Part shown: in pieces, positions 51,402 to 63,485 of the stretch
Position numbering within the stretch: position 1 is the first letter of the stretch
How the letters are laid out: the number at the start of each line of letters is the position of its first letter
Origin: an uncultured delta proteobacterium
Lineage (GTDB): Bacteria; Desulfobacterota; Binatia; JACPRU01
Reading direction: 5' to 3'
Assembly (NCBI GenBank): GCA_963745025.1
Contig: CAVUWD010000006.1
Span: 384,001-448,000, forward strand
DNA: 64,000 nucleotides
Made by a program: the position numbers and the translations under genes
The notes under the pieces: model-generated
What the model saw: only the letters and a program-made list of their open reading frames with translations
Told to the model about the DNA's origin: nothing
The model's database searches: none

Positions 51402-53330
51402 GTGGCCGACGAAGAACAAAAGACGACCTGGTCCGAAACGGCACCGTCCGCTGTGGTGAACGCGGAGGCCCCGAACGACCGCATGGCAGAAGCGCCCGCG
51501 AGTGACGCGCCCGCCATCGCCGGCCAAAACGCGGTGCGTCCTGCGGGAGAAGGGCATCGTCGGCGGCGACGGCGGCGACGGCGGCACCACCACGGCCCGC
51601 ATACGAACGGCGCTCCAGCCGCGGCGGCCGCCGAGCGCACCCCTTCGCGCCCGCCGAACGAGATCGATCTCGCCGCCCGCCGGCTCGGCATCCAACAGCT
51701 CTACGGGGAGCAGGAGCGGGTGATCCGCGCCGCGCTGGCGGGGCGCGAAGTGCTCGTCGTGCTGCCGACCGGATTCGGCAAGTCGGCCTGCTACCAGATT
51801 CCTTCGATGGTGCTGCCGAAGCCCGTAGTGCTGATTTCGCCGCTGCTCGCGCTGCTCCGCGACCAACACGAGAAGCTCTTGAAGCACAACATCCCGTGCG
51901 TGCGGCTCGACGGTACGGTCCGCGGAAAGGTTCGTCGCGAAGCGCTCGAGCGAATCAGCGCGGGCGGGTCACTGCTGGTCATGACGACTCCCGAGACGCT
52001 CGGCTCGGCCGAAGGGGCCGAGGCGCTCCGGCAGTCGGGTATCAGTCTCGCCGCCATCGACGAGGCGCACTGCATCTCGGCGTGGGGCCACGATTTCCGC
52101 CCCGCCTACTTGCAGATCGGCGAGCGCTTGCGCGAGCTCGGGGCGCCGCCGATCATGGCACTGACGGCGACCGCGACCGAGAATGTCCGCGAAGATATCG
52201 TCCGCTTCCTCCGCCTGAAGGACCCCGAGCTGGTCGCCGCCTCGCCGCACCGCGCGAACCTCGCCTTCGAGGTGCTCGAGAGCCGCTCCGAAGCCCGACT
52301 GCGCGCGCTCATGCGCTTCGCCAAACGCCTGCGTCGGCCCGGCATCATCTACTGCTCGACCACCCGCGAGGTCGACAACGTGTACCTGGCCCTGCAGATG
52401 CTGCGCATCCCCGCGCACCGCTATCACGGCAAGATGAACGGCGGCGACCGCAACCAGGAGCAGGAGATGTACATGAAGGCGGGACGGCGCACGGTCATGG
52501 TCGCGACCAGCGCGTTCGGCCTCGGCATCGATAAGCCCGACATCCGCTACATCGTCCACTACCAGGCCCCCGCCTCGCTCGAGCAGTACGTGCAGGAGGC
52601 TGGACGAGCCGGACGCGACGGCAACAAGGCGAACTGCATCCTGCTCTACGATCCGGACGATCGCACGATCCACGAGGCGTTGCTCGCCAAGAGCCGCGTG
52701 CGCCCCGATCAGCTCTTCAGGCTGGGCACGGCGCTCGCAGCGTGGAGGGGCGAAGGCCGAACACCGGATCTCGACGCGCTGGCGCTCTCCGCCCAGCTCT
52801 CGAGCCGCGTCACCGAGGCGCTGCTCGCGGTGCTCGAAGAGGCGGGGATCGTCTCGATCGGCGACGGCGGACCGATTCAGATCCTCGCCCCGGCCGAGTC
52901 GATCGAAGATCAGTCGCGAAGTCTCGCCGGCCAGTTCGAGACCCTGCGCACGCAGGATGGTCGGCGCCTCGATCGCATCGGCGAGTATGCGGGAAGCACC
53001 GAATGCCGCGCTGTCTTTCTGCGCCGTTACTTCGGCGAAGAGGACGGCGCGACGTGCGGCCTCTGCGACGTCTGCCGCGGGCGCCCCGAGCGACCGGAAA
53101 GCTTTTGGGAGCCGATTGCACAGCCCGAGCATCGCCGGAAGAAGCGGCGACATCGTCGCGGTCGGCGACGCGGCGGAGCCGGGCCGGTGCGCGCGCAAGG
53201 CGCTCCGAAGGTGGCCCCCGGGGAGCGCACCTCCACCTCTCCCGGTGCCCTCCCCGAGGCTCCCGAGCAGACGGACCTACCTGCCAACGGCGAGGACGCG
53301 GGGGAGTGGATCGAGGGCGACGGGGATTGA
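51402..53330 (+). CDS. RecQ-family DNA helicase with Arg-rich termini
   Basis: LPTGFGKS.CYQ, IDEAHCIS.WGHDFRP, ALTATA, AFGLGIDK, QEAGRAGRDG, CR....YFGE..CGLCDVC; no HRDC visible. Confidence 0.92.
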   Translation: MADEEQKTTWSETAPSAVVNAEAPNDRMAEAPASDAPAIAGQNAVRPAGEGHRRRRRRRRRHHHGPHTNGAPAAAAAERTPSRPPNEIDLAARRLGIQQLYGEQERVIRAALAGREVLVVLPTGFGKSACYQIPSMVLPKPVVLISPLLALLRDQHEKLLKHNIPCVRLDGTVRGKVRREALERISAGGSLLVMTTPETLGSAEGAEALRQSGISLAAIDEAHCISAWGHDFRPAYLQIGERLRELGAPPIMALTATATENVREDIVRFLRLKDPELVAASPHRANLAFEVLESRSEARLRALMRFAKRLRRPGIIYCSTTREVDNVYLALQMLRIPAHRYHGKMNGGDRNQEQEMYMKAGRRTVMVATSAFGLGIDKPDIRYIVHYQAPASLEQYVQEAGRAGRDGNKANCILLYDPDDRTIHEALLAKSRVRPDQLFRLGTALAAWRGEGRTPDLDALALSAQLSSRVTEALLAVLEEAGIVSIGDGGPIQILAPAESIEDQSRSLAGQFETLRTQDGRRLDRIGEYAGSTECRAVFLRRYFGEEDGATCGLCDVCRGRPERPESFWEPIAQPEHRRKKRRHRRGRRRGGAGPVRAQGAPKVAPGERTSTSPGALPEAPEQTDLPANGEDAGEWIEGDGD

Positions 53331-53687
53331 AGAGGTTCTCCGGTGTCCAGTCTCCGGCGAGAAACATCGTGGCCGCTGTTGAGGACTAGCGACCGTCGTG
53401 TTGCCGGCGTACGGGTGACTTGTTAGGCGGAAACGCTTCTGACTGCTTCGATCACGGGAAGACTGCCGCGGTCCCCCGGCTCGAGGCTGAGCTCAGCTGC
53501 TACGTTCTGCGACGCGAACCGAATGCCTATCGGCGCTCGCCCACCTGCGCCGCAACAAGAAGATCGACGCCGACGACGAGGCTCTAACCAAGCGCTTGCT
53601 CTTTCGCCTCCCGGCCGAGTGGACCGAGATCGCGCCCGACACACGTTTGCGCGACCGGGCCGAGCGCCTGCTGTGGGTGGACGTTCC

Positions 53688-54248
53688 CTACCCCCGCGCG
53701 AGCCCGAGGTGGTGGAATGCCACGACGACCAGCGCATGGCTGATGACGCCCTGACGGATGAGGTCCGGAATCTCGTCGAGCGGGGCGAGCACCACCTCGC
53801 ACTCTTCCGTGCTGTCGAACGAGGCGACGCTTTTGAGCTCCACGTTGCGCGCCAAGAACGAGTGGCACCGGTTCGTCTGGATCGCGGGATTCGGATGGAT
53901 AACGCCGAGGGGCACCACGTCATCGCTGTCGTAGCCGGTCTCTTCCTGCATCTCGCGCCGCGCCGCCTCGAGCGGTGATACGTCCTCCGCATCCACCATC
54001 CCGCCTGGGACCTCGAGGGTGAACTGATCGATGCCGTGGCGGTACTGGCGCACCATCACGACGCGCTGGTCGGCAGTCAGCGGGACGATGTTCACCCAAT
54101 CGGACGAATCGAGGACGTAGAAGTCGTGCAGCTCACCGGTTCTCGGGGAGCGCCGACGATGCTCGGTGACGGAGAAGACGCGGCAGTCATACACCGCGGA
54201 GGCCTCGAGCGTTTCCCAAGGGAGAAGGTTTTGCGGCTTGCGAGTCAT
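53688..54248 (-). CDS. NUDIX hydrolase (ADP-ribose pyrophosphatase-like)
   Basis: VRQYRHG, EVPGG.VD...AARREMQEETGY Nudix box. Confidence 0.92.
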   Translation of the reverse strand: MTRKPQNLLPWETLEASAVYDCRVFSVTEHRRRSPRTGELHDFYVLDSSDWVNIVPLTADQRVVMVRQYRHGIDQFTLEVPGGMVDAEDVSPLEAARREMQEETGYDSDDVVPLGVIHPNPAIQTNRCHSFLARNVELKSVASFDSTEECEVVLAPLDEIPDLIRQGVISHALVVVAFHHLGLARG

Positions 54249-54489
54249 CGCGACCACCTCGTTGTCCGACGATAGCAGAGGCGGCTCGGACGATCAGCCA
54301 GAGACGCGCGAGCGTGCTGCGCCGTTTGCAAGCCCCCGTGCGCCGCGAGATCGATGAGCCTCACCTCCGCCTTCCGCCAGAGGCCGGTCAGGAAGCCGCT
54401 GGTGCCGGCGTCGCCGAAGCGTTTCGCTGCTCCTCGCCGATGCCGATGTTAGGTTTCATTCGTCCTCTCCTTTCGGGTTGCCCGCAGGG

Positions 54490-55224
54490 CTACGAAGCCC
54501 AAGCGCTCCGTGCGCGGGTGAGCAGCCCGTCGTCGCTCGAGCGGCGGATCTCGGCGGCGGTCTCGATTTCTCCCACGGCGGACCGAAGCGGCCAGATTCG
54601 GCAGGTGAGACGGTCACCAGCGCGCGCCTCGTCGAGGTACTCGAGGTCGTGGCGTCGCGCACCGAGCCCGTTGCCGGCCATGGCGCGGCGCGCCGCCTCG
54701 AGGTAATCGAAGTACTTGGCGTTGTTTACGTGATCGAGCGCGTCGAGGTCGGCGGCATCGACGACGAGCTCGACGGCGAATGCGTCGGCAGGAGCATCCG
54801 GAAGCTCCAGCGTCGGGCGCGGGAGCGGGGGCACGTCGCCTTCGGGCACGAACGCGCGCATCATCTCGTCGGGAATCCGCCGCGGCCGGCCCGACGCTGC
54901 GTCCACGTACACCCAGTCGGTGTGTGCGGTCAGCATCCCGACCAGTTCGCCCGGCACGCGCACCGTGTATTCGCGGCGCGACCGCACGCGGCGGAAGTCG
55001 GCGACCCACGTCGCGATCTCCAGCTCGACGCCGCGCGGAATCGCCATCGGGCACTCGATCGTGGAGCGGCGGATGACCCAAGCCGTAGCGTGCCCAGCGT
55101 ACCACTCCGGCGGATAGCCTGCGTCCGCCGAGGCCAGCGTCGCGGATTCCTCGAGCAGGCGCGCGTAAACGGCGAAGCCCGCCTGCGGCGGAAGCGAGCG
55201 ACGGAACGAGAATCGCCGCGCCAT
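54490..55224 (-). CDS. Acyl-ACP thioesterase-like double-hotdog protein
   Basis: WVIRRS.IE, TWV..FRR.RSRREY, TDWVYVD...GRPRRIP, DLDALDHVNNAKY. Confidence 0.82.
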   Translation of the reverse strand: MARRFSFRRSLPPQAGFAVYARLLEESATLASADAGYPPEWYAGHATAWVIRRSTIECPMAIPRGVELEIATWVADFRRVRSRREYTVRVPGELVGMLTAHTDWVYVDAASGRPRRIPDEMMRAFVPEGDVPPLPRPTLELPDAPADAFAVELVVDAADLDALDHVNNAKYFDYLEAARRAMAGNGLGARRHDLEYLDEARAGDRLTCRIWPLRSAVGEIETAAEIRRSSDDGLLTRARSAWAS

Positions 55225-55229
55225 CCCGC

Positions 55230-56429
55230 TCACGCCGACTCCTCGATCGCTCGTGCGAGAATCGCGAGGCCGCACTCGATCTCGGCTTCGCCGATCACAA
55301 GCGGAGGCGCCAGCCGGATCACCCGATCGCGGTGAAGCGTCCAGTTGAGGATCAGGCCGTGTGCGAACGACCGCTCGGTGATCCGGCGGGTGAAGCGCGC
55401 GTCGTCGAACTCCAGGCCGACAAGTAGGCCGACACCGCGGACGTCGACGAGGTGGCCCTGCCACGCGAGCGCGCGGAGACCCGCCTGGAGCATGGCGCCG
55501 AGCACCTCCGCCCGCTCCCAGAGCCGCCCGCGCTCGAGCACTTCGAGTGCCGCGAGACCCGCCGCGCACGAGACCGGGTGGCCGCCGAACGTCGTCACGT
55601 GAGCAAGCGGCGGATCGCTCGCCAGCGTCGCCAGGATCTCGGGCGCCGCCACGAACGCGCCGAGCGGCATGCCGCCACCGAGGGCCTTGGCCAGCACCAG
55701 CAGATCCGGCGTCACGTCGAAGCGCTCGAAGGCGAAGCGCCGTCCGGCGCGGCCGAAGCCGGTCAGCACCTCGTCGAGGACGAGCAAGGCGCCGACCTCC
55801 GTCGTCCGTCGACGAACCTCGCGAAGGTAGCCGGCCGGAGGGATGCGCACGCCGCCCTCGCCCTGCACGGGTTCGATCACCACGGCCGCCGTCTCGCGGT
55901 CGATGGCACCGAGCGCGCCGTGATCGCCGAACGGCAGCCGCTCGACCCGCGGCAGCAGCGGCTCAAACGGACCCCGGTAGAGCGCGTTGCCGCCGAGCGA
56001 CAGCGCGCCGAGCGTGTCCCCGTGAAAGGCACCCTCGAAGGCGATGAGCTTGGCCCGGCCCGTGTGTTTGCGCGCGGTCTTTAGCGCGCCCTCGATCGCC
56101 TCGGCGCCGCTGTTCACGAAGTAGACCATCGACAGCGGCGCGGGCAACAGCGCGGCGAGCCGCGCGGCCAGCCGCACCTGCGGCTCCTCGACGTACTCAC
56201 CGTAGACCATCGCGTGCAGGTAGCGGCCTGCCTGCTCCCGCACCGCCGCGACCACCTCCGGATGCCCGTGGCCGACGTTGGCGACGCCCATGCCGGAAAG
56301 AAAATCGAGGTATGTGCGGCCGTGACGGTCGGTCACGGTCGAGCCTTCCGCGTTCGCGATCTCGAGCCCGAGCGGGGCCGCCGAGGTCTGCGCCACGTGG
56401 CGGCGAAAGAGCACGTCGAGCTCGCTCAT
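55230..56429 (-). CDS. Class III PLP aminotransferase
   Basis: YLDFLSG.GV.NVGH, NSGAEA.EGA.K, FHG, EPVQGEGG, DEV.TGFGR, PLP Lys in LAKALGGG, TTFGGHP. Confidence 0.93.
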   Translation of the reverse strand: MSELDVLFRRHVAQTSAAPLGLEIANAEGSTVTDRHGRTYLDFLSGMGVANVGHGHPEVVAAVREQAGRYLHAMVYGEYVEEPQVRLAARLAALLPAPLSMVYFVNSGAEAIEGALKTARKHTGRAKLIAFEGAFHGDTLGALSLGGNALYRGPFEPLLPRVERLPFGDHGALGAIDRETAAVVIEPVQGEGGVRIPPAGYLREVRRRTTEVGALLVLDEVLTGFGRAGRRFAFERFDVTPDLLVLAKALGGGMPLGAFVAAPEILATLASDPPLAHVTTFGGHPVSCAAGLAALEVLERGRLWERAEVLGAMLQAGLRALAWQGHLVDVRGVGLLVGLEFDDARFTRRITERSFAHGLILNWTLHRDRVIRLAPPLVIGEAEIECGLAILARAIEESA

Positions 56430-56902
56430 TCGCTCTCGAAGAGCCGGCGGGCCTGCGCCGTGCGCAGCCAGAGGATCGCGAGCAGCGGAAACACGAGATC
56501 CCAGATGTCGCCGCCGACGAGGAGTAGGCGGAGCTTGATGGCGATCGCCAGCGCGGGATCCTTGTGACCCGGCCCGATCGTGAAGTTGAGCACGGTGTAG
56601 AGGACCGTCGCCGCGAGCGACAGCGCCGACAGCGAAAGAACGGCCATCCGAGCGCGCGGCTCGAAGCGGCGCAGGCGCTGGGACGAAGTCAGGAGCAGCG
56701 TATAGAAGAGAACCTGCGGGATCCAGTAGAGAGTGCGGCTGCTGTCGGCGTCCGTGCCCCCAACTGCCACCAGCGCCGAAACGTAGGCGAGCGCGCTCGC
56801 GGTGACCTTGATCGCCGAAAACACGACGAGCAACAGCGCCAGGAAAAGCAGCTGCGCACGCAGTTCTTCGTCTGCGTGCTCCGCTTCCGGCGAAGGCTTC
56901 AC
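56426..56902 (-). CDS. Small multi-TM membrane protein
   Basis: About 4 hydrophobic helices; GTGA and ATGA overlaps with both neighbours. Confidence 0.75.
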   Translation of the reverse strand: MKPSPEAEHADEELRAQLLFLALLLVVFSAIKVTASALAYVSALVAVGGTDADSSRTLYWIPQVLFYTLLLTSSQRLRRFEPRARMAVLSLSALSLAATVLYTVLNFTIGPGHKDPALAIAIKLRLLLVGGDIWDLVFPLLAILWLRTAQARRLFESE

Positions 56903-58185
56903 CTCTGCTTCCCTAGGATGATTCCCGCCATCGGATCCAGTCCTCCCTGCCGCCAGTCGAGACCCGGGGCCTGCATGTGTCCGAGCGCTGCGATCCGGGG
57001 AACGCCGAGCGCTTCGAGCGATGCGCCGGTCTCGGCATCGGGCCATGGACCCATACCGACACATTCGACACGCGGCAACCACTCGCCGACCGCGTGGCGG
57101 AGGTCTCCGATCGTTTCGAGCGGGCGCACGAAGATCGTCCGGTGGAGCGGGCTCGGCCGGAAGCCGGCGGTCGGATCGTCGAGAATCGTCCAGCTCCTGC
57201 CGGCGCGGAGCGATACGCCCCCGCCGCCGAGCTCGCGCCATTCGTACTCGTCACGCAGCCGTCGAATGGCGACGGCGTCACCCTCGCCAAGCACGCCGCG
57301 TGGCCAGCGACATTCGGCCTCTTCCAGAGCTTCGGCCAGACACTCGACGAACTCACGACGCCGCGACGGCTCGGCTCCGACCACGTAGAGCGTCTGCGGC
57401 GATAGGCAGCCGAGCTGGTCGTAGAGCGCCACGTCGACCGCCGCGGCCGCGGCCAGCGACTGGACGTCGCTTGCCCGATCGAGACGAACGAGAGCGATGC
57501 TCAGCTTGTGGCCGAAGCCAACGAACCGCCCGCTTCTTCTCGCCGCGAGCGCGGCGACCGCTACGTCCGAGCCGTAGGCGACGAGCGAATCGACGCCGCG
57601 CACGAGCGCTTCCTCGCCGCCGCCGGATCCTCCTTCCCACCAGCTGACCGCGAGCGCCGAGGCGAGCGATGGAGCGATCGCACCGAGCGCTTCGGCGAAG
57701 AGCGCGGTGAGAAGCGGCTCCCCGGCCGCGGTCTTCACCACGCAAGAGGCCCCCGCCGTCAGCGCGAGCGCCGTCTTGAGGAGCGCGACACCGGGGATGT
57801 TTCCCGCCGCGACGATTCCGAAGAGGCCCACGACCTGCTTTGCCGGCCTCGCGATCGCCGCGAGAGTCTGCGCGTCCGCGAGCGGTGCGAAGACGCGCGG
57901 CAGAGTCTCCTCGATCATCGCCCGCGAGAAGCCGGTCACGTCGGGCAGCGCCCCGAGCGCGCGAAGCCGCAATCGATCGTCGGGATCGAGAAACCGTCGA
58001 GCCGCAGCGGCCACCGCAGCCGCGCGATCGCCGGGTTCTCCGTGCGCCACACGACTGCGCAACCGTGCGAGCAGCTCCCGCATCTCATCGGCGGAAAGCT
58101 CTGCGACCGCTAGCGCGAGCGTGCCGAATGCGGCCGGCCGCGTGCGGACCCGCTCCAGCGCGGGCAGATGAAAGGCGCGCTCCAT
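56899..58185 (-). CDS. LuxC-like acyl-CoA/acyl-protein reductase
   Basis: AAGNIPG, VAYGSD, FGHKLS, catalytic Cys in YDQLGCLSPQ, LGHMQAP. Confidence 0.88.
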   Translation of the reverse strand: MERAFHLPALERVRTRPAAFGTLALAVAELSADEMRELLARLRSRVAHGEPGDRAAAVAAAARRFLDPDDRLRLRALGALPDVTGFSRAMIEETLPRVFAPLADAQTLAAIARPAKQVVGLFGIVAAGNIPGVALLKTALALTAGASCVVKTAAGEPLLTALFAEALGAIAPSLASALAVSWWEGGSGGGEEALVRGVDSLVAYGSDVAVAALAARRSGRFVGFGHKLSIALVRLDRASDVQSLAAAAAVDVALYDQLGCLSPQTLYVVGAEPSRRREFVECLAEALEEAECRWPRGVLGEGDAVAIRRLRDEYEWRELGGGGVSLRAGRSWTILDDPTAGFRPSPLHRTIFVRPLETIGDLRHAVGEWLPRVECVGMGPWPDAETGASLEALGVPRIAALGHMQAPGLDWRQGGLDPMAGIILGKQR

Positions 58186-58191
58186 CGAGCG

Positions 58192-59253
58192 CTACGCCAC
58201 TTGCTCGAGGAGCAGCGCGCAGCCTCGCGCCTCGGCGCCGCTCGCGCGGCCGACGACTTCGAACCCCTCGCCGACCTCGATGCCCACGTCCTCGGTTTGG
58301 AGAGCGAGCACCGAGCCGACGTTGGCGAGATCGAAGTGGCGGAGAAGACCTCGCTCGCCGCGCGGCACAGGCTCGAACGTCTGCGGTGACATCACCCGCG
58401 TGCGCGCCCACTCCGGCGCGAGCTTCGCGCGGTCTCGCTTGCGGCCGGCGAAGTGGTTCTGGATCGAATCGTCGTAGAACTGCGAGCACATCTCGGTCAT
58501 GCCGTACTCGTTCGCCACGTAGTAGCCGGGCACGCCGAAGTAGTCCCAGAACGCGCGCAGTAGGCCGTTGCGCGACAGCGAACGGCTCTTCCCTTTGGTT
58601 CCTCCGGTATCGACGATCCGCGACCCATAGGGCAGACGAAAGCGAGCGCTGCTCGCCTGGCAGCGGTCGATGAAGCGGATGAACGCATACGTGAGGCCGA
58701 TCAAGAGAACCGGCTCGCGCGTCGGCTCGCACTCACGGAGCCGCCGTTCGAGCGCCTCGGCCTGAACCTCGCCGCGGACGACGAAGCATTCGGGCGGGCC
58801 GGCGGCAAACGATTCCGCGAGCCACTCGATCATCTGGCAGAGCGAGGACTGCGGCTGCTCGGCGAGCGTCGGAGCGAGGACCAGGAAATGCGGCCGCGCA
58901 CCATCGGGAAGAACACAGCGCGCGAAGTGAGCCAGCGCGGCGGCTCGGTAGATCGAGGGATCAGGCACGCGATGGCGACCTCGCTGCCTGGCACCTTCGG
59001 TCGTGCCGCTGGTCACGAACACACTCCCCTCGGGGAGACCGCTGACGACGAGCTCCGCTCGCTTGAACGCGGACACGGGCACAGCCGGGATCTCGGTCCA
59101 GTCCGTGACGTTCGCCGGCGTCCCGCCGCGGCGATCGCAGAAGCGCCGGTAGGGCACATTCCGCTCGTACTGGAAGCGGAAGAGCGCGAGCGCGAGGTCC
59201 GGAAAGCGGGCCGGATCGGGCGCGCCGATGAACTCACGCACCGCGGAAAACAT
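58192..59253 (-). CDS. LuxE-like acyl-protein synthetase
   Basis: FRFQY..N.PYRRFC, VPV.AFK, TSGTT, DTGGTKG, NEYGMTE, QTED.G, GR..GAE.RGC (acyl-acceptor Cys). Confidence 0.88.
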   Translation of the reverse strand: MFSAVREFIGAPDPARFPDLALALFRFQYERNVPYRRFCDRRGGTPANVTDWTEIPAVPVSAFKRAELVVSGLPEGSVFVTSGTTEGARQRGRHRVPDPSIYRAAALAHFARCVLPDGARPHFLVLAPTLAEQPQSSLCQMIEWLAESFAAGPPECFVVRGEVQAEALERRLRECEPTREPVLLIGLTYAFIRFIDRCQASSARFRLPYGSRIVDTGGTKGKSRSLSRNGLLRAFWDYFGVPGYYVANEYGMTEMCSQFYDDSIQNHFAGRKRDRAKLAPEWARTRVMSPQTFEPVPRGERGLLRHFDLANVGSVLALQTEDVGIEVGEGFEVVGRASGAEARGCALLLEQVA

Positions 59254-59525
59254 CCCTCCCGATATGCGGAGCGGCTCGATTCGAAGTCAAGGAGGTGCCA
59301 CGCGCGCGACGGGGAAACCACGGCCGCAGGAGGAGCATCGAATCCGGCGTGAGGAGCCTTTCCGAAAACGGACCATCCACCTGGCGCAAGTCGATCTTCG
59401 ACGTCAGGATCGCCGGATGCCGCGCTGGCTTGGAAGGACCGATCTCGGCCGGGTCACGCTGGCCGCGAAGCGCTACCGGAGCCGGCGTCCCCTGCCCACG
59501 CCGATGCACCTCGGGCGTGAGAGGC

Positions 59526-62500
59526 TCACGCCCGTACCCACCGCTCGTAGATCTTCGGCAGCTCGGTCGGCAGCGACGAGACGTCCTCGATCACCAGGTA
59601 CCGCGAGGTCTCGCACATCTGGCGGAGATAATCGTGTCCCGTCTTGTCGACGGTGATGCAGAAGGGCGTGATACCGGCGGCCTCGGCATTCCTGGAGGGC
59701 GACCATCGTGTCCTGGATGCCGTACGCGTTGCGAGCGGCGATCGTTCCCGTAGTCGAAGTCCTGCGGAAAGCCATCGGAGAGGAGGAAGAGGTGCTTGGA
59801 GCGCGTCGTCAGGTTCGCCATCTTCGCCCGCGCGTGGCGAAGCGCCGGCCCCATGCGCGTCGAGCGCCTCGGCTCGATGCCACCGATGCGGCCGCGCACG
59901 CGAGCGGTCAAGCGCCTCCTGGAAACGCTTCACGAGATAGAACTCGACGTTGTCCCTCCCCTGTCCGGAGAAGCCGTAGACGGCGTAGCGATCGCCGAGC
60001 TCTTCGAGCGCCTCGGCCATGATCACCAGCGCCTCCTTCGTCACGTCGATGATGCGCCGCTCGCTCCCGCGCGTGCCGCACGCGGTGGCGGGACGCCCCG
60101 CGGGCTCGGCAGACTTCGGCTGCAGCGGCTCGTCGGTCGACGCGCTCATGTCGAGGAGAAAGAGCGTCGCCACGTCGCGCTCCTCGCGCGACGCGCGACG
60201 TAGAGGCGGGTCGAGGGCGCACGGCGCGCGCGGAGCTCGACGCGCGCTTCGACGACCGCGTTCAGATCGAAGTCCTCGCCGTCCTCGAGGCCGCGCACCT
60301 TGCGATAGCGTCTCGGGGCGAAGCCGCTGGAACTGGCGGCGAACTTCGGGAAGCAGGTCGGCGTAGCGGGCGAGCGTGTCCTGGAAGAACTCGCCCGCAT
60401 CGCCCGCCGAGGTGGATTTCCTCGAGATGGCACCAGCGGCTGCGGTAGTCGCGGATCTGGTAGTCCCACTCGTCGTAGTCGAATCCCGCGCGATCGGCCA
60501 CACCGCGCCGCCCGCGGCGCGTGCCGTCGTGGATCGACACCTCGCTCTCGCCTTCGTCTCGCCCTGGAGACTGCGGCAGCCGCAGGTCCCGCGCGAAGAT
60601 GCCGGCGCTCTCCACGGTCTCGGTCGAGCGCCCGACCTTGAGCACCGCGCCGGCCTCGAGCAGGCGCTTCAGCTCGTCGCCGGAAAGCGGCGTACCCGGT
60701 CCCTCTTCGTCGCTCTCCTCGACGGCCTTCGGCTCGAGATCGAGCACCTCCGTCGGCGGAGGCTTGTCTGCCGGCTCGTCGCCTTCCTCCGGCTCCGGGT
60801 CGAGAGCCGCGGCGCCGATCACCTTCTCGAACAAGAGCTCCTCGTATGTCGTCGCCGCACCGAAGCCCGATATCGCAATCGAGTCGGCGAGCCGTTCGCG
60901 AATCTGGATGGCGACCGCCAGCGCGTCATCGACGGTGGCGTCCGGGCTCCGGAGCACCGCGGCGACGAAGCCGACGAGCTCCGCCGGCAGCTCCTCGGTC
61001 GATAGCTCGGCCGGCGAAACGCCGGCGCCGATCAGGAAGAGAACGAGCTCGGCGCTTCGTCGCGCGCGCGGCACCCGCCGGGCGAGACGTTCGCTGATTC
61101 GGCCGAGCTCGGCGGCGTGGCCGCGATAGCTTCGGCGCATTCGACAATCGATGCGCGCGCCCTCGCAGGCGGCGAACAGCGGGATCAACGGATCGGCGTC
61201 GGGCACGGCCTCGAACAGATCGCCGAGCGTATCGCCGTTCACCAGGGCGGCGACCACGGATGCGAGCGGAGGCGGCAGCCGCGTCGACACCCGCCCGAGC
61301 GAGACGTCGTACGTGCCGTAGAGCAGCCGGCCCACGCCGCCCGCGGTCGCGAGCTTGAGGATCGAGAAGTTGTCCTCCCAAGACTGGAAGAAATCCACGT
61401 TGTCTGGCAGCGCGAGGCTCGCACCCTCTAGGCTCTCGCGGTCGAGAAATGCGCGCAGCGAGACGCCGTCCACGCCGCGGAGGGTCAGACTCTCGCCCGA
61501 GAGCATCCGCGCGTAGGAGCGGAGCACGCCGTGGATCTCTTCGAGACGAACCGCCGCGGAGTTCTCGCGCAAGAACCGAAGCGCCGTACGCGACTCGAGC
61601 GCGAAGTAGGCTCGCCCGGCGTCGAGATTGGCTTCGGCAAGCGCTTCCCCACGCTCGATCCAGCGCGGCAGCCGGCGCGGGCCCGCCTGTTCGAGCGCGC
61701 GCGGCAACGAGCGGACGAGCGGAACGACGCAGAGCGGAAGCCGAGCGCCGCTCTCGGCCACGCGCTCGAGGATCGCGGAGCGCGACGTCTCGGGAATCGA
61801 GCGCACGATCGCCTCGAGGAGCGGCACGAGCGCGAGCACCGCCTCTGCGTCGACCGCGGCCGGAACGAGCGCGCGGAGGAGCGGCGACCGTGCCGACGGA
61901 TCGATGCGAGCGAGCTCTGGCGGCAAGCCGGCGAAGAGGCTCGCCGCGGCGCGCGGCGCCCGCGGCGCGGCCGCCGCGCAGAGCTCGAAGAGGTTTGCTC
62001 GCTCCGCGGCCGACAGCAGCGCGATGCCGTCCGGCATCTTCTGGAAGAATCCTTGGCCGAGCTCGCGACCGACCTGCACCGCGGTGCCGAGCGTGGCCCA
62101 CCGCCGGATCTCTTCGTTGGACAGCACCGGCAGCACCGAGGCACCCGACGAAAAGAACGCTGCGGCCAAGAACTCCCCGCGCCAGCCGCTTCCGGAGGCG
62201 AGGCGCATGCCAGCCGCGGCCCATTCCTCGAGCCGCGCGCGCGCCTTTTCGTGAAGCCCCGGCAGCGCCGCGCCGCTGCCCTCGAGGAAGAGCGCCGCGA
62301 GCTTTCGCGACAGTCCCTGCACCGAGCCGGCAAGTGTGAGCCAGTGCGCGAGCAGCGGCCGGCTGCAGGACGCGATCGCCACGGGATCCAGACGCAGGAA
62401 CGCGGCGGCGGCCTCGCGATTGGCGAGCGCCCGCGAGGCGATGTCGACCGCTAGCTTCCCCCAGAGGGCGAAGCGCTCGCGGTCCATTCGTGCACGCGCG

Positions 62501-62685
62501 TGCGGTGCCCGTAGCGCATACGCCTGCGCCAGTGCGAGGCTCGTCTCGGCGAGCGCGTCGCCGAAATGAACGATCTCGCGCTGCTCCGCCTCGGGCAGGC
62601 GGCGAAACTTCGCGAGCGCCTCCGCACCGCCTTCCGCGCGCGCGAGGTGCGGGCTCCGCAGCCACTCGGCGCGCGACGGGCTCAT
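59526..62685 (-). CDS. Large NorD/CbbO-like VWA protein (3' part frameshifted)
   Basis: YDEWDY...[59 protein letters not shown]; ATGA-coupled to cbbQ. Confidence 0.85.
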
Positions 62686-63485
62686 GGAAATACGGTGGAA
62701 CAGAGCTCGTCGATCGCGCGCTCGGTCTCGGGGTCGTCCGACAGCGCCCGGGTCACCGCAGCCGCGCACGCCGCTCGGGCCGATACGCCCCGGCGCATGA
62801 GCCGCGCGGCGTAGATCAAGAGCCGCGTGCTCACCCCCTCCTCGAGGCCGCTCGCCTTCAGATTTCGCACCTTCTCGCCGAGCGCGGCGAGCTCGAGCGC
62901 CACGTCGGCGGTGATGCCGCTCTCGTGGGCGATGATCTCGGCCTCCTTGTCGCGCGGCGGATAGTTGAACTCGATCGCTACGAAGCGCTGGCGCGTCGAT
63001 GGCTTCAGATCCTTCAGCACGCTCTGGTAGCCGGGGTTGTAGGAGATCACGAGCAGGAAATCGCGGTGCGCCTGGAGGATCTCGCCGCGCTTGTCGATGG
63101 GCAGAATCCGCCGGTGATCGGTGAGCGGATGGATCAACACGGTCGTGTCCTTGCGCGCCTCGACGACCTCGTCGAGATAGCAGACCGCGCCGCTGCGCAC
63201 CGCCTGCGTGAGCGGCCCGTCGATCCACACCGTGTCGTCGCCCTTGATGAGATATCGGCCGACGAGGTCGCTGCCCGTCAGATCCTCGTGACAGGCGACG
63301 GTGATCAGGCCCGGCACGCCGTCCGCCGCTTCGCCGTGAAAGCGGCGAGTGACGTGCTCGATGAACCGCGTCTTGCCGCAGCCCGTCGGCCCCTTCAGTA
63401 ACACCGGCAGGCGGCACTCGAAGGCGGCGCGAAAGAGCTCGATCTCCTCGCCGATCGGAAGGTAGTAGGGAATGTGGCGGGTCAT
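62682..63485 (-). CDS. CbbQ/NirQ/NorQ-family MoxR AAA+ ATPase
   Basis: [62 protein letters not shown]. Confidence 0.95.

Follow-up and report, generated by a model that had tools for sequence, protein, structure and literature searches.

A conserved LuxE-LuxC-aminotransferase module in Binatia and its possible role in preQ1 synthesis

A five-gene cluster encoding homologs of LuxE and LuxC, a class-III aminotransferase and two further proteins was analyzed in a 64-kb stretch of DNA (the window; coordinates below are those of the window unless a contig or locus is named). The window spans positions 384001-448000 of contig 6 (C6) of G000, a metagenome-assembled genome (MAG) of the Binatia of 5.6 Mb, with a completeness of 92.65% and a contamination of 7.6%. 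The LuxE-like protein, the LuxC-like protein and the aminotransferase appear to form one conserved carboxylate-to-amine module, an assignment that is well supported by gene neighborhoods and gene fusions. We propose that this trio makes preQ1 from 7-carboxy-7-deazaguanine (CDG) and is the main queuosine route for most Binatia and for lineages within Methylomirabilota, Nitrospirota and other groups. On the sequence evidence, the probability of this reading is about 0.65.

In the canonical pathway, CDG, the product of QueE, is converted to preQ0 by QueC, which takes the acid through an amide to a nitrile, and preQ0 is then converted from nitrile to amine by QueF. The resulting preQ1 (7-aminomethyl-7-deazaguanine) is the substrate of Tgt. 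To our knowledge, queuosine synthesis is treated as settled, with QueC and QueF as the only route from CDG to preQ1. In the proposed route, the LuxE-like protein would adenylate a carboxylic acid and hold it as a thioester on Cys345, the LuxC-like protein would receive the acyl group on Cys260 and use NAD(P)H to reduce it to the aldehyde, and the pyridoxal phosphate (PLP)-dependent aminotransferase would convert the aldehyde by transamination into a primary amine, the donor probably being glutamate. With CDG as the acid, the intermediate would be 7-formyl-7-deazaguanine, either free or channelled, and the product would be preQ1, at a predicted cost of one ATP and one NAD(P)H in addition to the amino donor. 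The trio would then constitute a non-orthologous replacement of QueC and QueF. We infer the substrate, the cofactors and the amino donor; CDG is the likely substrate because of the phyletic pattern of the trio and its linkage to queE and queG.

Conservation and fusions of the trio

The 12 to 17 kb around the LuxC homolog were compared in 20 relatives from the Binatia. LuxE, LuxC and the aminotransferase occurred together in 17 of the 20 loci, and the aminotransferase adjoined LuxC in 18. An aminotransferase of the same type was found about 11 kb away in G013, beyond the fetched stretch, and the locus of G021 was a 9.7-kb contig with no aminotransferase on it. A LuxC-like protein was present in 52 of 61 Binatia genomes, mostly MAGs, and in a single copy in G000. 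In Binatia the trio is thus near-universal and single-copy, with the character of a housekeeping-like unit.

A second set of 80 loci was collected by a scan with a LuxE alignment, with one genome per species; at least six of these loci overlap the set of 20 relatives. LuxC was present in 65 of the 80 loci and the aminotransferase in 52, the latter rising to 41 of 50 among the loci with at least 1.5 kb of upstream and at least 4.5 kb of downstream sequence. Two gene orders were observed, LuxE-LuxC-aminotransferase and, in Methylomirabilota, aminotransferase-LuxE-LuxC. Carriers of the trio were found in Binatia, Methylomirabilota and Nitrospirota and among MAGs labelled Myxococcales, Thermodesulfobacteriota and Deltaproteobacteria, and the aminotransferase was 55 to 65% identical across phyla.

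Fusions of the genes were also found. Among proteins of 700 to 2000 residues, 57 were at least 55% identical to the aminotransferase, of which 56 were LuxC::aminotransferase fusions (55 to 66% identity) and one combined LuxE with the aminotransferase. Many relatives of LuxE were LuxE::LuxC fusions, and seven were fused to a Zn alcohol dehydrogenase instead. None of 55 long LuxE relatives was fused to a que gene, and a query with LuxC returned no scored long fused relatives, which is weak evidence. Given these fusions and the conservation of the trio in Binatia and other phyla, the coupling of acid to aldehyde to primary amine proposed in the initial annotation is well supported. Since the arrangement of LuxE, LuxC and the aminotransferase is conserved across genomes and fused, it is more than chance; the same does not hold for the thioesterase and membrane protein that accompany the trio in the window.

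Zn alcohol dehydrogenase::LuxE fusions were seen in L154 (5732-8083, plus strand) and in the proteins P0107, P0109, P0110 and P0112-P0114. The fusion in L154 adjoins LuxC in a Thermomicrobiales MAG that has both QueC and QueF. Together with LuxC, such fusions are probably a variant of the module that leads from acid through aldehyde to alcohol.

By sequence, the parts of the trio belong to known Pfam families (LuxE, LuxC and class-III aminotransferases), and they are neither the equivalogs of luminous bacteria nor ArgD. The LuxE-like protein matched PF04443 over residues 21-351 with 59.1 bits (cut-off, 24.9) and the LuxC-like protein matched PF05893 with 153.7 bits (cut-off, 21). Scores against the corresponding equivalog models were 60.4 bits for the long-chain-fatty-acid ligase LuxE (NF052244; cut-off, 550) and 56.1 bits for the long-chain fatty-acyl reductase LuxC (NF052251; cut-off, 750), which places both proteins far from their namesakes in luminous bacteria. 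The only match of each in the PDB was a chain of 7XC6, chain A for the LuxC-like protein and chain E for the LuxE-like protein, and both matches were very distant (48 and 60 bits). The LuxE-like protein has the motifs TSGTT at residue 81, DTGGTKG at residue 215 and NEYGMTE at residue 248.

The initial annotation had described the catalytic Cys, Cys and Lys residues as intact, and alignment with solved structures agreed. Cys260 of the LuxC-like protein, which we take to be the catalytic cysteine, lies in YDQLGCLSPQ and aligns with YDQQACFSTQ of 7XC6 chain A. Cys345 of the LuxE-like protein, presumably the acylated cysteine, lies in RGC, eight residues before the C terminus, aligns with KGC of 7XC6 chain E, and is among the 52 columns that were invariant across 20 Binatia homologs. 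Lys248 of the aminotransferase lies in LAKALGGG and aligns with the same motif of Thermus thermophilus LysJ (1VEF).

Queuosine genes and the acid substrate

The presence of queuosine genes was profiled in the 61 Binatia genomes. Canonical QueC (232 to 260 bits) was restricted to seven genomes (G008, G016, G024, G040, G056, G032 and G048), all of them among the nine that lack LuxC, and was missing from every one of the 52 genomes with LuxC; the next-best score was 105. QueF (110 to 124 bits) was detected in six of these seven genomes and, again, in 0 of the 52 LuxC-positive genomes. All other matches to QueF scored 27.5 bits or less and proved to be FolE in the four genomes checked. The two remaining LuxC-negative genomes were G004 (65% complete) and G026 (93% complete). 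The other queuosine genes were almost ubiquitous, with Tgt in 59, a PTPS/QueD-like protein in 60 and a QueE-like protein in 58 of the 61 genomes, the QueE-like gene often lying a few kilobases from FolE. In G000, Tgt and QueA exceeded their NCBIfam cut-offs and FolE (252.6 bits) lay 3.7 kb from the QueE-like gene; QueF was not found in this genome. In the complete genome G037, QueE (360 bits; cut-off, 240) and QueG were present, and QueC and QueF were absent; in complete relatives such as this one, the missing step is unambiguous.

The genomes of Binatia family f7 also carry a protein of about 290 residues with tandem PTPS/QueD-like domains (128 and 114 bits) besides the single-domain QueD-like gene. 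It was found at C1:3010666-3011481 in G037, with homologs in G013, G021, G029, G045 and G053.

A second sample comprised 101 genomes of Methylomirabilota, the phylum of the Methylomirabilis genome G062. QueF was present in 80 and LuxC in 16 of these genomes. QueF was lacking in 12 of the 16 LuxC-positive genomes versus 9 of the 85 LuxC-negative genomes; three unpublished genomes fall into the QueF-positive, LuxC-negative cell. A LuxC score of the trio type (232 to 252 bits) went with the absence of QueF in 10 of 10 genomes. Among 24 further genomes with the LuxE subfamily, Tgt was detected in 23, QueF in 1 and canonical QueC in 2.

Physical linkage to queuosine genes was observed in several loci. 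In L098, the gene immediately upstream of LuxE encodes QueE (310.4 bits; cut-off, 300), and the same position in L101 is taken by a gene assigned as a QueE homolog by its 81% identity to that of L098. In the metagenome locus L202, QueE (301.9 bits; cut-off, 300) is followed within 2 bp by an aminotransferase, which is only 39% identical to that of the window, and then by a LuxE::LuxC fusion. In L097, QueG (390.6 bits; cut-off, 200) ends 3 bp before the aminotransferase, and QueG homologs were found directly upstream of the aminotransferase in five more Methylomirabilota loci.

The conversion of CDG to preQ1 through an aldehyde is chemically plausible. 7-Formyl-7-deazaguanine is described as the hydrolysis product of the QueF imine intermediate that is released by QueF variants (PMC13740343). 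Judged by its closest solved structures, the aminotransferase falls within the ArgD/LysJ/putrescine aminotransferase group, which acts on polar aldehydes. A search of the openly accessible literature found no paper that links LuxC or LuxE homologs to queuosine or describes such a route from CDG to preQ1.

Several observations weigh against a role in preQ1 synthesis. Some concern G000 itself, in which the QueD-like and QueE-like proteins gave their best matches to the QueD and QueE models at scores below the cut-offs, and in which QueG was not found at its completeness of 92.65%. The window itself contains no que gene; the genome carries Tgt/QueA, FolE and the genes of the QueD-like and QueE-like proteins on different contigs or at a distance of about 117 kb. 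G000 also encodes a divergent QueC-like PP-loop protein (C2:152306-152941; L176 6307-6942, minus strand; Pfam, 80 bits; TIGR00364, 52.9 against 150.3), which could be a real QueC; its gene adjoins a pteridine-reductase-like short-chain dehydrogenase/reductase gene and an HpnJ-like radical SAM gene. Divergent QueC-like genes of this kind (80 to 134 bits overall, 80 to 105 bits in Binatia) were found in about 16 of the 52 LuxC-positive Binatia and in 5 of the 24 further LuxE carriers, and never together with canonical QueC. Others concern the phyletic contrasts. G026 has neither LuxC nor QueC and QueF. Related genomes are not independent: three families (f2, f14 and f16) account for the contrast in Binatia, and probably a single clade for that in Methylomirabilota. 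Four LuxC-positive Methylomirabilota genomes keep QueF, although two or three of these have a higher-scoring and apparently different type of LuxC, and two of the further LuxE carriers (G083 and G070) have canonical QueC. The absence of QueC and QueF in the presence of Tgt can also signify salvage.

Limits to the reach of the trio point in the same direction. Nine well-flanked LuxE loci, from Gemmatimonadota/Longimicrobiales and Chloroflexota, have no aminotransferase nearby. In G076, G077, G079, G080 and G081 (loci including L116, L122, L135, L141 and L152), the aminotransferases are only 37 to 45% identical to that of the window, and in Herpetosiphon LuxC is not linked to LuxE. A linked aminotransferase in Herpetosiphon, Longimicrobiales, Gemmatimonadota and Dehalococcoidia was rejected, as only aminotransferases of 37 to 45% identity were available there; the trio model therefore does not appear to extend simply to these lineages. 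Finally, a search for preQ1 riboswitches at positions 52000-62000 of the window (Rfam, E of 5 or less) returned three chance-level matches and no riboswitch, and none was found in 9 Binatia loci or 12 loci of other lineages; the absence of riboswitches is uninformative for these phyla. The Binatia loci contained one unrelated RNA, a DUF3800-VI motif in G045 (L053 6945-6995, plus strand; 61.8 bits; gathering score, 35), near the aminotransferase gene and on the opposite strand.

It is also conceivable that the trio aminates another small polar acid, such as an amino-acid, polyamine or cofactor intermediate, and that the anticorrelation with QueC and QueF reflects the shared ancestry of a few clades. 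The evidence covers the coupling of the module and the substrate is only inferred, the neighbors in most loci are unrelated to queuosine (PNPOx-like, PEP-mutase-like and LpxL-like acyltransferase proteins and NUDIX hydrolases), 4 of the 16 LuxC-positive Methylomirabilota genomes retain QueF, and carriers without a linked aminotransferase exist. The LuxE family is also fused to Zn alcohol dehydrogenase, so the module serves more than one end. We nevertheless regard this explanation as unlikely: there are three separate arrangements in which the module has a bona fide queE or queG as its immediate neighbor, the complementarity was observed in two phyla with opposite majority states, and the retention of FolE, QueD-like, QueE-like, Tgt and QueA proteins leaves exactly the gap from CDG to preQ1 that the trio would fill.

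Genomes with Tgt, QueA and QueE that lack QueC and QueF are currently interpreted either as incomplete or as dependent on salvage. Should the trio make preQ1, a large set of orphan luxC and luxE homologs would gain a function and the metabolic reconstructions of several uncultured phyla would be corrected. The route would be nitrile-free and cheaper, and would constitute a compact acid-to-amine cascade, sometimes within one fused protein, of possible use in biocatalysis. A 2026 review names QueF as the sole enzyme family known to reduce nitriles directly to amines.

Fatty amines, ArgD and the accessory genes

The initial annotation had read the cluster as a fatty-amine pathway, in which the thioesterase replaces LuxD and frees an acid from acyl carrier protein (ACP), LuxE and LuxC produce a fatty aldehyde, the aminotransferase produces a fatty amine, and the membrane protein serves in export, resistance or a further step. 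The acid-to-aldehyde-to-amine chemistry of this interpretation is well supported; its substrate and its roles for the thioesterase and the membrane protein are not supported and are most likely wrong. The gene arrangement itself was confirmed from the open reading frames and junctions, which comprised five minus-strand genes (Table 1) with a 6-bp gap between luxE and luxC (58186-58191), a GTGA overlap of the luxC stop with the start of the membrane-protein gene (56899-56902), an ATGA overlap of the membrane-protein gene stop with the start of the aminotransferase gene (56426-56429) and a 5-bp gap between the aminotransferase and thioesterase genes (55225-55229). The absence of luxAB was likewise confirmed, as none of the 59 matches to luciferase-like monooxygenases in G000 fell inside the window and the nearest on its contig was more than 125 kb away. 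A Pfam search of the five genes detected no alpha/beta-hydrolase LuxD, and the arrangement of a lux operon, with luxA/luxB and luxD beside luxC/luxE, was not found. A scan of positions 53300-59700 detected no promoter-like site and a single terminator-like site, which was intragenic; these counts were below those of shuffled sequences.

Table 1. Genes of the cluster and its downstream neighbor, in window coordinates
Feature	Position	Strand	Remarks
LuxE-like adenylating acyl-protein synthetase	58192..59253	-	353 aa; first gene of the module; PF04443
LuxC-like thioester reductase, aldehyde dehydrogenase superfamily	56899..58185	-	428 aa; PF05893
Small hydrophobic protein	56426..56902	-	158 aa; GTG start; no Pfam/NCBIfam family
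Class-III (omega) aminotransferase, luxCE-linked subfamily	55230..56429	-	399 aa; PF00202; PLP Lys248
Double-hotdog thioesterase, weakly FatA/B-like	54490..55224	-	244 aa; Acyl-ACP_TE domains and 4HBT_2
NUDIX hydrolase gene, downstream neighbor	53688..54257	-	PF00293, 60.2 bits; pathway membership not claimed

The thioesterase matched the N- and C-terminal Acyl-ACP_TE domains marginally above their cut-offs (PF01643, 32.5 against 23.7 bits; PF20791, 30.1 against 21 bits), and its match to 4HBT_2 (41.3 bits) exceeded both domain scores. G000 is the only genome in which its gene directly adjoins that of the aminotransferase. A metallophosphoesterase gene separates the two in G006 and G003, where the distance is about 1 kb, and the thioesterase gene is absent beside the aminotransferase in G007, G005 and G001, the last of which belongs to the same genus as G000 and has a NUDIX gene directly after the aminotransferase. 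Beyond G000, the thioesterase was found in 2 of the 20 Binatia loci (G006 and G003, both of family f1) and in 0 of 15 loci of other Binatia families; in the 80-locus set its only occurrences were L079 and L080, the G006 and G003 loci again. As an integral substitute for LuxD, the thioesterase was rejected, being unconserved even within the genus. One guess is that it clears mis-acylated enzyme.

The membrane protein has three to five hydrophobic segments by hydropathy, which makes its assignment as a four-transmembrane protein plausible, and it matched no family in Pfam or NCBIfam. Homologs at the equivalent position were detected in 4 of the 20 Binatia loci and 3 of the 80 LuxE loci, all in family f1, a distribution that does not bear out the proposed role in export, resistance or a further step. 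Judged by this pattern, the membrane protein and the thioesterase are accessories specific to family f1 that lie outside the conserved module.

A fatty-acid substrate would be in keeping with the LuxE and LuxC family names and the conserved cysteines, with a thioesterase with weak acyl-ACP thioesterase domains 5 bp downstream of the aminotransferase, and with the LpxL-like acyltransferases that adjoin the trio in L055 and L057. There is also a precedent: the LuxC-related reductase TabE and the class-III transaminase TabA are reported to yield dodecylamine and form, with TabQ and TabJ, the alkylamine branch of the biosynthesis of the tambjamine BE-18591 in Streptomyces (bioRxiv 10.1101/2025.08.11.669332). 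Still, we hold a fatty-amine pathway to be improbable. The thioesterase and the membrane protein are restricted to family f1, and the former is missing or separated by another gene in close relatives; the LuxE-like and LuxC-like proteins fall far short of the equivalog cut-offs; and the trio is housekeeping-like in Binatia, with an aminotransferase conserved across phyla, and is linked to queuosine genes. No ACP, fatty acid synthase or lipid gene was conserved beside the trio in the loci examined, and a search limited to the five genes and their neighbors detected no PP-binding domain.

The aminotransferase was also compared with ArgD. It matched the class-III family PF00202 (Aminotran_3) with 333.9 bits; its best NCBIfam matches were ArgD models, all below the cut-offs (TIGR00707, 346.7 against 410.05; NF002874, 373.3 against 457), and its nearest solved structures were LysJ (1VEF, 295 bits) and the putrescine aminotransferase YgjG (4UOX, 281 bits). 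Four complete or near-complete relatives (G013, G037, G045 and G019) encode a separate ArgD of 476 to 502 bits (cut-off, 410), compared with 338 to 386 bits for their luxCE-linked aminotransferases on the same model. In a maximum-likelihood tree with 83 rows, of which 77 were distinct, the 66 luxCE-linked aminotransferases formed one side of a branch with an SH-aLRT support of 99, apart from true ArgDs and from the G000 paralogs. True ArgD relatives were fused to acetylglutamate kinase (ArgB) or ornithine carbamoyltransferase instead of LuxC, and only at 47% identity or less to the aminotransferase. No arg genes were found beside the aminotransferase among its neighbors in the window or in the Binatia loci. 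A plain ArgD was rejected on the sub-cut-off score, the separate ArgD in relatives, the clade of its own and the different fusion partners. The outcome that the initial annotation had named as speaking against its proposal, an ArgD without co-occurrence with luxCE, was not encountered; rather, the aminotransferase accompanies luxCE in several phyla, in many cases as a fusion with LuxC.

G000 encodes about 13 class-III aminotransferases, the others being of the GABA aminotransferase, AptA and HemL types, among others. None of them reaches the ArgD cut-off, and the luxCE-linked aminotransferase practically shares the top score (346.4 against 346.5). Apart from it, the genome has a single ArgD-like gene, at C14:122016-122914 (locus L179 3026-4155), which runs through three successive frames at its 3' end and may be the true argD, broken or mis-assembled. 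Since no aminotransferase of G000 reaches the ArgD cut-off and the C14 gene is frame-disrupted, the luxCE-linked aminotransferase may have a second role in G000. These two circumstances would suit an enzyme that is the ArgD (or LysJ) of the cell, merely beside an unrelated luxCE pair, but the separate ArgDs of relatives, the distinct clades, the 56 fusions to LuxC and the lack of adjacent arg genes make this explanation highly improbable and have largely refuted it already.

Beyond the five genes, a NUDIX homolog lies downstream in 5 of 5 family f1 loci, and Zn-ribbon NUDIX genes lie 1.5 to 2.2 kb past luxE in the f7 loci L049 and L053. Recurrent neighbors of the trio in L049, L053, L054 and L056 (families f7 and f8) encode a PNPOx-like split-barrel protein, a Lactamase_B_2 protein, a 4Fe-4S protein, a phosphoenolpyruvate (PEP)-mutase/isocitrate-lyase-family protein and the Zn-ribbon NUDIX hydrolase, through either synteny or function. 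In family f11, LpxL-type lipid A acyltransferase genes and a KdsD-like SIS/CBS gene flank the trio (L055 3897-6607 and L057 11284-12270), probably by chance adjacency.

Two further features of the window were noted. A large VWA-domain gene (59526-62703, minus strand), next after a CbbQ/NorQ-type AAA+ gene (62685-63470), is split over two frames: residues 23-796 of its G006 homolog are matched by the frame 62703-60385 and residues 790-1075 by the frame 60404-59529. The apparent frameshift near 60385-60404 is either real or an assembly error. Between the thioesterase and NUDIX genes, at 54365-54459 (minus strand), an ATG preceded by a ribosome-binding site opens a frame of only 23 codons. Over 24 residues (62% identity; E, 8e-5), this segment also matches the C-terminal portion of a Dps/ferritin gene, which occupies the position in G003, and it may be the remnant of a lost Dps gene.

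Comparison with known systems

The LuxC-LuxE fatty acid reductase of luminous bacteria, solved for Photobacterium phosphoreum (7XC6), shares both Pfam families with the pair described here and is the only solved relative of both proteins, with the LuxC cysteine and the C-terminal LuxE cysteine aligned. The presumed common chemistry is adenylation, thioester formation and reduction with NAD(P)H to an aldehyde. Unlike the lux system of luminous bacteria, the present pair is without LuxD and LuxAB and is coupled or fused to an aminotransferase, and its substrate is likely other than a fatty acid. ArgD, LysJ (1VEF) and YgjG (4UOX), the closest solved sequences to the aminotransferase, have the fold and the PLP-lysine motif in common with it. 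In contrast to ArgD and LysJ, the luxCE-linked enzyme scores below the cut-offs for both, falls in its own clade and has different fusion partners.

TabE and TabA resemble the trio in that a thioester reductase clustering with LuxC in a sequence network is followed by a class-III omega-transaminase that yields a primary amine, with a thioesterase nearby. As described in that report (bioRxiv 10.1101/2025.08.11.669332), the Tab system differs in its ACP-bound acyl chain, its type II editing thioesterase, the lack of a LuxE and its setting in a pigment gene cluster. The trio, for its part, has a LuxE activator, no ACP or natural-product genes found nearby, a housekeeping-like distribution and, most likely, a deazapurine substrate.

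QueC and QueF start and end with the same metabolites as those proposed for the trio. Their distributions exclude each other in Binatia and show a strong anticorrelation in Methylomirabilota. The two sets are unrelated in enzyme family and in chemistry: the trio would lead from acid through aldehyde to amine, with no amide or nitrile on the way.

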